From Planctomycetota bacterium (GTDB lineage: Bacteria > Planctomycetota > UBA1135): a DNA stretch of 33,687 bases. The notes under the pieces were generated by a model, which ran no database searches, was not told where the DNA came from, and saw only the letters and a list, made by a program, of their open reading frames with translations. Positions within the stretch are counted from its first letter, which is position 1. Every line of letters starts with the position of its first letter. Location of the stretch: NCBI GenBank assembly GCA_045047305.1, contig JASFYO010000023.1:1-33687 (forward strand), in the 5' to 3' direction. The position numbers and the translations under genes are program-made. Shown here piece by piece: positions 19,892 through 24,902 of the stretch.

Positions 19892-20120
19892 CCTTTGGCT
19901 CTCCCAAAAAACATTTCTTACAGGTCAATTGAGTCCCCAGGTGCTCTTGGCGCCCTGCCGCGGATGTGACCCAGTCACGCTCCATGAACGGCGGGTGATG
20001 ACGTACATGCTGGAGATGCCCACAAGCCAACTTCGCTACCCAATGCTGTTCAGCATCGAGGCGAAATCCAACAATGGATTGGCTCACACTCTCTCCGGAG
20101 ACTCGACTTGGATCAACCAT
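19884..20120 (-). CDS. DUF3565 family protein
   Basis: IVGFRLDAEQHWVAKLACGHLQHVRHHPPF...WV...G..L.CKKC matches the DUF3565 pattern. Confidence 0.82.
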   Translation of the reverse strand: MVDPSRVSGESVSQSIVGFRLDAEQHWVAKLACGHLQHVRHHPPFMERDWVTSAAGRQEHLGTQLTCKKCFLGEPKDE

Positions 20121-20141
20121 GGAGCAGAAGTCTAACAGGCA

Positions 20142-20258
20142 CTAAGACTCAAGAACATGCGTAGGGAATCCATCCAGACTTACCTGGTTCCGTTCCTTCC
20201 AGTAGGTCTCGACGCCGTCCTTGCCCTTCACCGCGGCCCATTGATTCAACTGCCCACG
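20142..20258 (-). pseudogene. Probable 3' remnant of a pyridoxamine 5'-phosphate oxidase-like FMN-binding protein gene
   Basis: Manual translation RGQLNQWAAVKGKDGVETYWKERNQVSLDGFPTHVLES* resembles the C-terminus of that family; the 5' part is absent. Confidence 0.5.
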
Positions 20259-20287
20259 AAATGGGTCGCCATAAAAGATAGATGCAT

Positions 20288-20325
20288 AAAAAGTGAGGCC
20301 GCAACGATTTCTCGTTGCGGCCTCA
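20288..20325 (-). terminator. Rho-independent terminator of the putative selenoprotein gene
   Basis: Perfect 14-bp inverted repeat TGAGGCCGCAACGA-TTTC-TCGTTGCGGCCTCA (20294-20325), 17 nt after the stop, followed by a T-run on the - strand. Confidence 0.85.
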
Positions 20326-20342
20326 AAGGTAGGAAAGCCTGC

Positions 20343-21311
20343 TTAGGAATCGACTTTGACCTTCTCGCGCATCTCCTTCAGTTTCAAATCGCCTTGATCA
20401 AAAAAGTCCTTTGCGGCTTCTTCCTCAGCGAATGCAACTTTCAGAGCATTCAAGGCAAGCTCGAACAAATCGGCATCGCCTAATGCTTCGGCATGTTCCA
20501 TGATCAAGCTCCAGAAGGTACCAAGCTTTTCTTGACCTTCTGGGATCTTGCCCGCTTGGTACATAGCAAAGAACTTGGCACCGACCTTCGGCATCATTTC
20601 GTCCGCTTCTTCTTGCGAACGAACCGTGGACATCATCTCCATGATGCTGTCGAACTCGAGGCCAATCAATTGGACCTTCAGTTCTGCCTGCTGTACTGGA
20701 TCAAGATCTTTCAGCTTCGCGGCATCCGCTTTCGCTTCTTCATAGGTGTACTGTCCCATGCGAAGCTTCACGAAAAACAACTCCTTCTCCAATCCCTTCT
20801 CGCCTGCGGCAATCCGGTTTTCAAGATCGGTTACGGCCATCAGTTTATGCAGAGAAGCTTCGAAAGCTTCCACGCTCCGCCCAGATGGTTCACCGAGGAT
20901 CTTGCCCTCGGCGTTCATGAATTTCAAAGTTGGAAATCCACGGCCGCCCTTTTCGCGGAACAGAGCTTCGTGCGGATGATCTTCCATGTGCGTGGTTACG
21001 TGTAAGTACGGAACCACCTTTTCAGCAAAGGCTGGAAATTCTTCTGCGGAGAGCGGACCGCTCTCCAGGGAGTTACAAGGGCCTCATGGGGCGTAGGAAC
21101 GAGTGAAGTAGACGAAAATCAACTTCCCCTGGTCCTTTGCGATTTGACGCGCCTGATCGTAATCAAGGATCCAGTTGCCATAAGTCACGAAGGACTTGGC
21201 CAACTTGGCATCAAGCTTGGCTTGCAAGTCCGCCGTGTCTTGTGCAGCGGCAGGAGCAGCCAGCGCAAGACCGAGCAGTGCCGGTGCAAGCAATTTGGTG
21301 AATGTACGCAT
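20343..21311 (-). CDS. Exported thioredoxin-fold selenoprotein (UGPC motif; in-frame TGA at 21086-21084 read as Sec, codon 76), 322 aa, with a helical C-terminal domain
   Basis: Signal peptide (AAA|Q); W..DYDQA...AK..GKLIFVYFT Trx-like N-terminus; ...YAP-TGA-GPC; the frame continues without stops into the 20343-21017 ORF, which contains the GFPTLKF cis-Pro motif; SECIS-like hairpin 3' of the TGA. Confidence 0.85.
21048..21066 (-). promoter_or_regulatory. Putative bacterial SECIS element
   Basis: GGAGAGCG-GTC-CGCTCTCC: perfect 8-bp stem at +18 to +36 after the UGA, with an apical loop starting with G at +26. Confidence 0.75.
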
Positions 21312-21447
21312 GGTTTATGAAATGAAGCCGGAGAATTCCAGCAGAGTCTATTCTATACGGCTTACTAGGTGTCCTGCATGGCGTTTTCAGCAGGCATTTC
21401 CTCAGAATCGAGGTTATTTCACCGCATGGTGTTACGATAACCCTTCG

Positions 21448-22722
21448 ATGATGGCTTCCGAACCCGCCCAAATTGAGTTGTTGGCACCTGCTGGGTGCTA
21501 TCCGTCACTGCGTGCCGCCATTGCGAATGGTGCCGATGCCGTTTATTTTGGCCTTGCTCAACTGAATATGCGTGCACGGTCTAGGCGCAGCTTTGAGCGC
21601 GAGGATTTGGCTGAAATTTGCCGCATCTGCCGCGAAAGCGATGTCAAAAGTTACATGGCATTGAATACGGTGCTGTATGAGCACGACCTAAACCTGTGCC
21701 GCGAGCTTCTGCAAGAAGCCAAGCTTCAGCAAATCAGTGCGGTGATTTTGTCGGACATGGCCGCGGTGATTCTGGCCCAAGATTTGGGTTTAGAAGTCCA
21801 CCTTTCCACCCAACTCTCCATCTCGAACTCGGAGTCGGTGCGCTTTTATGCCCCCCACTGCGATCGCATCGTGCTAGCTCGGGAACTGAGTCTGCCGATG
21901 ATCAGCAGGGTGCATCAAAGTATCATCAGCGAAGACATCCGGGGACGCTCCGGGCGCCCGATGGAACTGGAAGCCTTCGCGCATGGAGCACTTTGCATTG
22001 CGGTTTCCGGCCGCTGCAGCATGTCTTTGTACTCCTCCAATGCATCCGCTAACCGCGGTGCTTGTGACCAAAACTGTCGCAAGGAGTACATCGTGAAGGA
22101 CGCAGAAACCGGACATGAGATGTTGGTAGACAACAACTACATCATGTCGCCAACCGACATCCTGACTCTAGGCTTCGTCGACAAAATGGTTGAGAGCGGC
22201 GTTCTAGTCTTCAAGATTGAAGGACGTGGACGCGCTCCGGAATACGTCGGTGCGGTCACTGCGGCTTATCGCAAGGCACTGGATGCGGTAAGAGATGGCT
22301 GCTTTAACCAAGAATTGGTAGACGAATTGATGCCGTCGGTAGAAAAGGTTTACAACCGCGGCTTCTCTTCAGGGTACTACCTTGGGCAGAAACAAGGCTG
22401 GGCCAAGGCTGGTGGAAGCAAGGCGTCGCGGGTGAAGCAAATGATTGGCACGGTGAGCAATGTGTTTCAAAAGGCAGGTGTTCTGCAGGTTGATGCCACC
22501 GCAGGAAAACTCAGCGCCGGCGATGAATACGTCATCATTGGGCACACCACTGGCGCAGTGCAAGGAACCGTTTTAGAACTCCGCGTGGAATCCGATGACG
22601 GCCCGCTCACGCCAGAATTTGTCGAGAAAGGCACGCAGTTCACCCTGCCCCACTCGGGAGATGCGCGCCGCGGAGATCAGCTCTACCGCTTGGCTCCCGT
22701 GCCAACTCCAGCGGAAGTTTAA
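21448..22722 (+). CDS. Peptidase U32 family Fe-S protein (TrhP/RlhA-like RNA hydroxylase)
   Basis: ELLAPAG, GADAVYFG, HLSTQ, RIVLAREL, E.F.HGALCIAVSGRC...NRGACDQNCR (Fe-S Cys), KIEGR; C-terminal beta-barrel. Start reassigned to ATG 21448/21451. Confidence 0.9.
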   Translation: MMASEPAQIELLAPAGCYPSLRAAIANGADAVYFGLAQLNMRARSRRSFEREDLAEICRICRESDVKSYMALNTVLYEHDLNLCRELLQEAKLQQISAVILSDMAAVILAQDLGLEVHLSTQLSISNSESVRFYAPHCDRIVLARELSLPMISRVHQSIISEDIRGRSGRPMELEAFAHGALCIAVSGRCSMSLYSSNASANRGACDQNCRKEYIVKDAETGHEMLVDNNYIMSPTDILTLGFVDKMVESGVLVFKIEGRGRAPEYVGAVTAAYRKALDAVRDGCFNQELVDELMPSVEKVYNRGFSSGYYLGQKQGWAKAGGSKASRVKQMIGTVSNVFQKAGVLQVDATAGKLSAGDEYVIIGHTTGAVQGTVLELRVESDDGPLTPEFVEKGTQFTLPHSGDARRGDQLYRLAPVPTPAEV

Positions 22723-24825: not shown

Positions 24826-24902
24826 TGGTAGGGGAAAAGGGACTCGAACCCCCGACCCGCGGATTATGATTCCGCTGCTCTAACCAACTGAGCTATTCCC
24901 CC
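24826..24902 (-). tRNA. tRNA-Met(CAT), probably elongator, CCA encoded
   Basis: GGGGGAA/TTCCCCT acceptor stem, TAGCTCAGTTGGTTAGAGC D-arm, GCGGA-ATCATAA-TCCGC anticodon arm, GGTTCGAGTCC T-arm, ACCA end. It lacks the initiator C1:A72 mismatch and the three consecutive G-C pairs. Confidence 0.93.

Follow-up and report, generated by a model that had tools for sequence, protein, structure and literature searches.

A predicted exported UxxC selenoprotein combining a thioredoxin fold with a helical C-terminal domain in Planctomycetota

Thioredoxin-fold selenoproteins in which selenocysteine (Sec, U) takes the first position of a UxxC motif are the commonest kind known. Many entries of this type figure in a 119-family inventory (Table 1, PMC13188914), including PF00085, PF13098, cd02966, DsbG-like, HUIPC, SaoT and TsoX, and the locus described here shares with them a UGA as the first codon of a CxxC-type motif, an in-frame SECIS element, homologues carrying Cys, and the thioredoxin fold. 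For bacterial SECIS elements, section 5 of the same source gives as rules a loop 16-37 nt after the UGA with G in the first two loop positions, a stem of 4-16 pairs and an energy of at most -7.5 kcal/mol. Described systems lacking Sec are also relevant. Chlamydial DsbH (NF043050, PDB 2ju5), a periplasmic protein of a single domain, is described as a reducing oxidoreductase (PMC5193440), and DsbD/ScsB proteins feed periplasmic thioredoxin-like proteins (PMC3322552). YbbN/CnoX proteins, with and without a full CxxC motif, are built from a thioredoxin domain followed by a C-terminal helical domain (PMC10998233).

Here we compare with these systems a gene in a window of 33,687 nucleotides (the whole stretch of DNA analysed, from contig JASFYO010000023.1 of assembly GCA_045047305.1), in which a first-pass annotation had noticed two neighbouring open reading frames and joined them into one exported thioredoxin-fold selenoprotein. 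Our preferred reading, to which we give a probability of roughly 0.6, is that a single gene, its UGA read as Sec, encodes an exported thioredoxin-fold disulfide reductase of the periplasm.

An interrupted reading frame on the minus strand

The two open reading frames of the ORF list (21084-21311, 75 aa, and 20343-21017, 224 aa) do share one frame of the minus strand, and they are separated, as had been described, by a TGA (21086-21084) plus 22 sense codons (21083-21018). Translation of 21311-20343 with TGA as U yields the 322 residues expected, with a single internal stop at codon 76 in the context FTRSYAP-U-GPCNSLESGP. The GFPT loop named at the outset is present at residues 125-128; its Pro127 aligns with the YPT/MPT of solved chains, and we take its geometry to be cis from general knowledge of the thioredoxin family and not from the model. 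The features of the gene are as follows.

20343..21311, minus strand: whole gene, 322 codons plus TAA, with one TGA taken as read through; homologues are equally long
21243..21311, minus strand: predicted signal peptide, residues 1-23, cleavage between AAA and Q (heuristic script)
21084..21086, minus strand: in-frame TGA, putative Sec (U76) at the attacking position of U-G-P-C
21075..21077, minus strand: Cys79, putative resolving residue and the only Cys of the protein; invariant in 28/28 aligned members
20931..20933, minus strand: Pro127 of GFPT, putative cis-proline; invariant in 28/28
20284..20325, minus strand: intrinsic-terminator-like hairpin and T tail, 14 pairs, 9 of them G-C
21350..21355, minus strand: TAGAAT, a weak candidate for a -10 element, lying in the 136 bases that separate the gene from the divergent peptidase U32 gene

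On one side the gene has a divergent peptidase U32 gene as its neighbour, on the other a DUF3565 gene. The strong terminator reported 3' of it is borne out (hairpin 20325-20294, 14 pairs, T tail). As for the proposed promoter, TAGAAT does occur at 21355-21350, but a scan of 19900-21700 contains no full sigma-70 site, so that the element is a -10 look-alike only. A monocistronic transcript of its own is plausible for this gene. On the other strand, the mechanically called peptidase U32 ORF (508 aa, window 21196-22722, plus strand) overlaps the start of the selenoprotein gene; its likely start is the ATG at 21448 or 21451, which leaves the divergent gap of 136 bases. Just past the terminator, at window positions 20255-20281, between the selenoprotein gene and DUF3565, lies a variable site at which contigs of the public runs X1 and X3 hold extra sequence (2392 letters in X3). 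Elsewhere in the window, a tRNA-Met gene (24826-24902, minus strand) adjoins a class I glutamyl-tRNA synthetase-like gene.

The 23-residue signal peptide was recovered by a simple script (basic N-terminus, hydrophobic core, cleavage after AAA and before Q), and residues 1-23 contain neither a twin-arginine motif nor a lipobox. The same script is passed by 24 of the 28 aligned members of the family and by 71 of 84 full-length library homologues, and residues 1-20 have low pLDDT in the predicted structure. On these grounds the signal peptide very probably takes the protein out of the cytoplasm.

Conservation of the TGA codon, its hairpin and the Sec machinery

The family is matched in 31 of 41 related genomes, and TGA stands at the exact codon in 29 of the 30 copies whose alignment spans it (the window's gene among them; 30-64% protein identity). 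These copies comprise 17 UPPC, 10 UGPC, one UGFC and one UTPC motif, with Phe in the remaining copy; G-P or P-P separates U from C in 27/29, and His is absent from the motif in 29/29. The U76 column and C79 are both invariant in the 28 aligned members. A profile built from these 28 members matched 117 times across 301 genomes of the phylum, 75 of which (about a quarter) are positive; 103 of the matches contain TGA, 13 contain no stop and one contains only TAG. In a set of 30 loci, U occupies the site in 36/36 copies (34 by script, 2 by eye), and among 79 named loci, drawn from the best 80 of 210 and carrying only titles of Planctomycetota taxa or 'uncultured bacterium', the site reads UxxC in 84 of 88 scored copies, CxxC in two, CxxA in one and WxxC in one, with one further copy lacking the motif. 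Related genomes are not independent, and all of these counts therefore overstate significance. The codon itself was re-checked in contigs (not raw reads) of runs X1, X2 and X3, which span 21084-21086 unchanged; X1 is near-identical to the present assembly and may be its source, and run X5 has no coverage of the codon.

At the protein level, 598 library representatives match the family profile at E<=1e-30. Of the top 150 library relatives, 91 are single proteins that extend across the site, and 61 of these 91 carry the Cys at codon 76 that the first-pass annotation had named as expected support; the attacking-site motifs are 54 CxxC, 6 CxxS, 1 CxxA, 10 SxxC and 20 others. Since the other 30 have no Cys at the attacking position, some members have another redox role or none. 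The remaining 59 of the 150 begin downstream of the site, as expected from gene callers that stop at TGA; their called starts vary among copies and cut the thioredoxin fold. The splitting that had been predicted is thus what the databases contain, with the downstream part held as a separate protein and source names reading 'hypothetical protein'. Conservation runs as a single frame through the two parts and the 22 codons that join them. In six copies from the same genus, these joining codons are 63% identical at the protein level, and 43 of the 83 identities involve synonymous change, as in the flanks. Tests set beforehand for absent machinery, an assembly error, a recent nonsense mutation and two separate genes found none of the four.

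Cys at the Sec position was also seen in 10 of 134 DNA copies. In a tree from a quick search (130 rows, midpoint root, no outgroup; excluding L178, L179 and rows shorter than 200 residues; site column blank for Sec rows and retained for others), the seven Cys rows need six changes, at least three of which are forced by well-supported branches. The scatter of Cys copies among Sec copies on this midpoint-rooted tree without an outgroup fits repeated replacement of Sec by Cys. A separate curiosity is locus L145, which has TGG (Trp) at the Sec position together with a complete hairpin, lies outside these 134 copies, and may reflect a recent mutation or an assembly error; library protein P0091 also has Trp there. 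Tandem paralogues, up to four in a row, occur at L024, L030, L036, L063 and L133, and in some of the tandem arrays one copy lacks the attacking residue.

The element expected downstream of a Sec codon is present within the 22 intervening codons.

21048..21066, minus strand: SECIS-like hairpin, 7-pair stem, loop GGUCC (fold, covariation, loss in non-Sec copies)

In the window, the stem starts 18 nt and the loop 24 nt after the UGA, with 7-9 pairs and -14.3 kcal/mol, within the loop, G-U and spacing rules of PMC13188914 (section 5). Taken alone, the hairpin has modest z values (-1.07 to -2.54), and 5574 of the 56265 TGA triplets of the host genome (10%) satisfy a loose SECIS filter, so that the case for the hairpin rests on conservation. 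Over 29 copies, 95.6% of 203 cells are paired, 22 of them by change on both sides; none of 500 shuffles scored as high, slid controls gave 47-65%, and RNAalifold recovered the same stem. A natural control is provided by 134 distinct copies, 13 regions of which were fetched because they lack TGA, so that the set yields no frequency estimate: the mean number of stem pairs is 6.35 of 7 in 117 Sec copies versus 3.7 in 17 others (the N-terminal motif differs in two of the 17). Where the loop has a Gly codon, GGT is used by 73 of 86 Sec copies and by 0 of 11 others, against a background of 12% (Sec) and 6% (others) among the other Gly codons of the same genes. There are exceptions: in this register, 11 of the 117 Sec copies retain only 3-4 of the 7 pairs, and all 7 are found in one Ser copy. 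In these comparisons, the hairpin behaves like a SECIS element and decays where Sec has been replaced.

The host genome, which had been proposed as the place to look for Sec machinery, proved to contain all of it: selA, selB (its wing domain in a 645-codon frame), the tRNA-Sec gene selC, and selD, which itself contains a TGA. TGA terminates 445 of 1456 frames of at least 300 codons, the tRNA-Trp anticodon is CCA, and the sole tRNA with a UCA anticodon is tRNA-Sec; because TGA is an ordinary stop elsewhere and tRNA-Trp has CCA, a changed code is not the explanation. In the phylum sample, selA is found in 72 of 75 family-positive genomes versus 221 of 301 overall, and the other three have selB, two of them with tRNA-Sec. 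The proposal that Sec replaces the attacking N-terminal Cys is therefore supported by TGA conservation, the covarying hairpin, the sel genes and the Cys homologues.

The host also appears to contain other selenoproteins. A motif-plus-hairpin scan for them was too noisy and was replaced by a coding-potential scan, which, with family scans, found further TGA-interrupted genes of known selenoprotein kinds. Candidates L163-L168 are an MsrA, a peroxiredoxin, a protein that by its motif is presumably DUF3179-like and that has no NCBIfam match, two methylated-DNA methyltransferases and an AhpD-like protein. A VPGUxxT type 2 protein (G000:C56:16190-17095 region; L160:190-1095, minus strand) scores 338.7 bits against a cut-off of 275 and is interrupted in frame by two TGAs, of which the second belongs to an MsrA-like GMS-U-FW motif. 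Further TGA-interrupted thioredoxin-like genes lie at L161:143-1132 (+), L162:208-1254 (+), L160:4421-5350 (+) and L155; two of them encode TlpA-like W-U-GPC proteins that have helical tails, and one a W-U-GWC protein, all three with signal-peptide-like starts and none reaching an NCBIfam cut-off, while the remaining one encodes a W-U-HYC protein on C33. Counting redox genes that are interrupted by TGA and begin with a signal-peptide-like stretch, this genome has at least six besides the present one. A profile comparison of the window protein with an exported TlpA-like selenoprotein of the same genome gave a probability of 1.2%, over the thioredoxin part only, and so lends no support to kinship between the two helical tails.

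Domain architecture and comparison with described families

Downstream of the signal peptide, the protein divides into two predicted domains.

20835..21185, minus strand: thioredoxin-fold domain of the DsbH/Thioredoxin_7 type, residues about 43-159 (PF13899; DsbH 2ju5)
20346..20834, minus strand: all-helical charged C-terminal domain, residues 160-322, loosely TPR-like (predicted model)

The thioredoxin-like character first ascribed to the N-terminal part is confirmed by Pfam Thioredoxin_7 (PF13899, residues 47-134, 27.3 vs 27 bits, E 4e-6), which also matches 70 of 84 homologues at E<=0.001. Structure prediction of the full-length protein, as had been suggested, gave a confident model (pLDDT 92.7, pTM 0.81), in which U76 lies between strand 65-71 and helix 77-83. 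In a sequence alignment with chains of known structure that have the thioredoxin fold, U76 falls on the leading Cys of CGPC. The closest structure to the catalytic domain is DsbH 2ju5 (Z 12.0, rmsd 2.6, 115 aligned); a search against the sequences of solved structures gave six weak thioredoxin-fold matches, none below E 0.1.

The charged helical C-terminal domain of the original description was reproduced when folded alone, with eight helices and a pLDDT of 96.7. By itself it has no Foldseek match at E<=0.001; in VIA its best Z is 8.3 and many TPR rows lie at Z 6.4-8.2, a range that is uninformative for helical folds, and no TPR family of Pfam matches any of 84 homologues at E<=0.001. When the whole model was searched, Foldseek ranked YbbN/CnoX first, with YbbN chains making up three of the four matches at E<=0.001, and the whole-chain superposition on YbbN was poor (TM 0.22-0.23, rmsd about 20). 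Longer family members, with about 390-420 residues after Sec, occur at L093, L095, L097, L099, L102, L107, L108, L115 and L151; in four of them a second match corresponds to a duplicated helical domain.

The suggestion that the family is undescribed holds within the NCBIfam models, the inventory in Table 1 of PMC13188914 and the literature searched. None of the 119 families in that table is recognisable as this one, our literature search (with the BSepDB family table S2, possibly relevant, outside the comparison) found no description of the family, and the main texts of the 2026 review PMC13188914 and of the BSepDB and deep-Sep papers do not mention Planctomycetes. No NCBIfam selenoprotein cut-off is reached by any of the 28 members. 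The models for HUIPC, SaoT, TsoX, TsoY, DsbG-like and GOS_C, assumed to be present in the release, gave no match to the window protein at E<=1 and none to the 28 members at E<=0.01; PF13098 matches 14 of 84 homologues weakly and the window protein not at all. Unlike the UxxC entries listed in Table 1 (PMC13188914), the present family has an FTRSY-x-x-U-x-P-C motif, a signal peptide and a helical domain of 160 residues.

Individual relatives differ in other respects. The Trx7/PDZ selenoprotein NF041199 shares a Thioredoxin_7-type domain but is listed as CxxU rather than UxxC, and the window protein has no PDZ match in Pfam and scores 16.1 bits against a cut-off of 300. The VPGUxxT families NF041382 and NF041383 are weakly similar in the thioredoxin domain (21.8 and 12.5 bits vs cut-offs of 350 and 275), but the VPGU motif is absent here and the C-terminal part is another. 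The DsbH model NF043050 weakly matches 27 of 28 members (best E 6.7e-11; window protein 25.2 bits vs a cut-off of 190), whereas Sec and the added helical domain distinguish this family from DsbH. YbbN/CnoX proteins share the order of thioredoxin and all-helical domains, but here a signal peptide and Sec are present and a TPR profile match is lacking. Judged against the described families other than the three entries with a generic-domain definition (PF13098, PF00085 and cd02966), this is a new family and a new domain combination within the known class of bacterial UxxC selenoproteins. The chemistry is not new, UxxC thioredoxins being well known, and the surprise first attached to the gene was accordingly overrated.

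Proposed function and competing readings

In the reductase reading, SelB carrying Sec-tRNA would bind the downstream hairpin and insert Sec76 at the UGA, a step that established E. coli-type biology and the sequence evidence together make almost certain. The signal peptide would direct the selenoprotein out of the cytoplasm, where the Sec76 selenolate would attack an oxidised cysteine or disulfide of a client and Cys79 would resolve the mixed bond, leaving a selenenyl-sulfide; a DsbD-like membrane protein of the host genome would then recharge the selenoprotein, and the role of the helical domain would be to hold or select the client. For reductase direction, donor of electrons and client taken jointly, we see odds somewhat better than even. 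A reducing role is suggested because the x-Pro motif lacks His, the best structural match is DsbH, and the host genome has a DsbD-like gene (768 aa, G000:C87). An x-Pro pair between the catalytic residues is the reductase type. The host genome (88% complete) has no DsbB match, and a DSBA-family match exists in it. In 79 loci (flanks up to 6 kb), outside the family itself and antisense shadows, no ORF cluster recurs in more than 10; since no neighbour is conserved, the context names no partner, substrate or operon-based function.

The alternatives differ in what they leave intact. The same selenoprotein could mainly serve as an isomerase or redox chaperone, corresponding in the periplasm to CnoX/YbbN or DsbC/ScsC, and its helical domain would hold unfolded exported proteins while UxxC protects or reshuffles their cysteines; we consider this possible but rather unlikely. 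CnoX is a cytoplasmic partner of GroEL, whereas the protein here has a signal peptide. The shared layout, the predominance of YbbN among the Foldseek matches, the many TPR chains listed for the helical domain alone, and the retention of copies without the attacking residue in a family where tandem paralogues are common all point towards a chaperone, but the poor whole-chain superposition on YbbN, the uninformative Z of the helical domain and the absence of Pfam TPR matches argue against it. An improbable alternative is a metal-linked reductase, which in copper or mercury handling would maintain a periplasmic metal chaperone with its thiols or selenols in the reduced state. It draws on three relatives from three genera in which a second TGA (GM[ST]-U-xxx-C/U) leads into a fused C-terminal HMA domain and is followed in every case by a separate hairpin:

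L026:1258-1488 (-): HMA-fused member, GMS-U-AVM-U
L028:2446-2667 (+): HMA-fused member, GMT-U-GVSC
L032:2470-2703 (+): HMA-fused member, GMT-U-RVNC

These domains match CopZ/MerP models with E values of 1e-11 to 4e-14, below the model cut-offs, L026 has two further TGAs and would carry three Sec residues, and library protein P0127 ends at the same place. The fusion is nonetheless rare (3 of 29 TGA copies), the window copy has no HMA domain, and no metal gene cluster recurs among the neighbours; because all three copies fall in one clade, it is probably a single event, a side branch and a lead rather than the general function. A DsbA-type oxidase that introduces disulfides into exported proteins would suit the predicted location and the fold, but we regard it as very improbable given the lack of His in all 29 motifs, the absence of a DSBA Pfam match in the window protein and its 84 homologues, a best structural match to a reducing enzyme, and the missing DsbB match in the 88%-complete genome. 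Least credible of all is that the TGA is a true stop (a pseudogene, an assembly error or two genes), or that a changed code makes it Trp or Gly. TGA does end many long frames of this genome, the downstream part does appear separately in databases, and one homologue has TGG; against this, the same codon recurs in more than 100 divergent copies, homologues carry Cys there and not Trp or Gly, hairpin selection is limited to TGA copies, the only UCA-anticodon tRNA is tRNA-Sec, three other assemblies agree on TGA, and the varying downstream starts would leave a truncated thioredoxin fold.

Returning to the exported selenoprotein reductase, a broader and more speculative picture, unlikely in its entirety, can be drawn from the family as a whole: an exported seleno-chaperedoxin in which Sec is ancestral and the helical domain holds clients, one branch having gained a metal-binding domain with two or three Sec, may be one node of a periplasmic redox network of Planctomycetota that relies mostly on selenium and that gene callers have hidden. 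The family adds to the bacterial selenoproteome a large group (its library representatives are numerous, and a quarter of the sampled phylum genomes contain it), and recognising it puts right a systematic error of annotation by which both signal peptide and active site are lost. Its natural Sec/Cys pairs, in which the hairpin is lost with Sec, would offer a clean test of the benefit of selenium to a thiol enzyme of the periplasm and of the key bases of the SECIS element.
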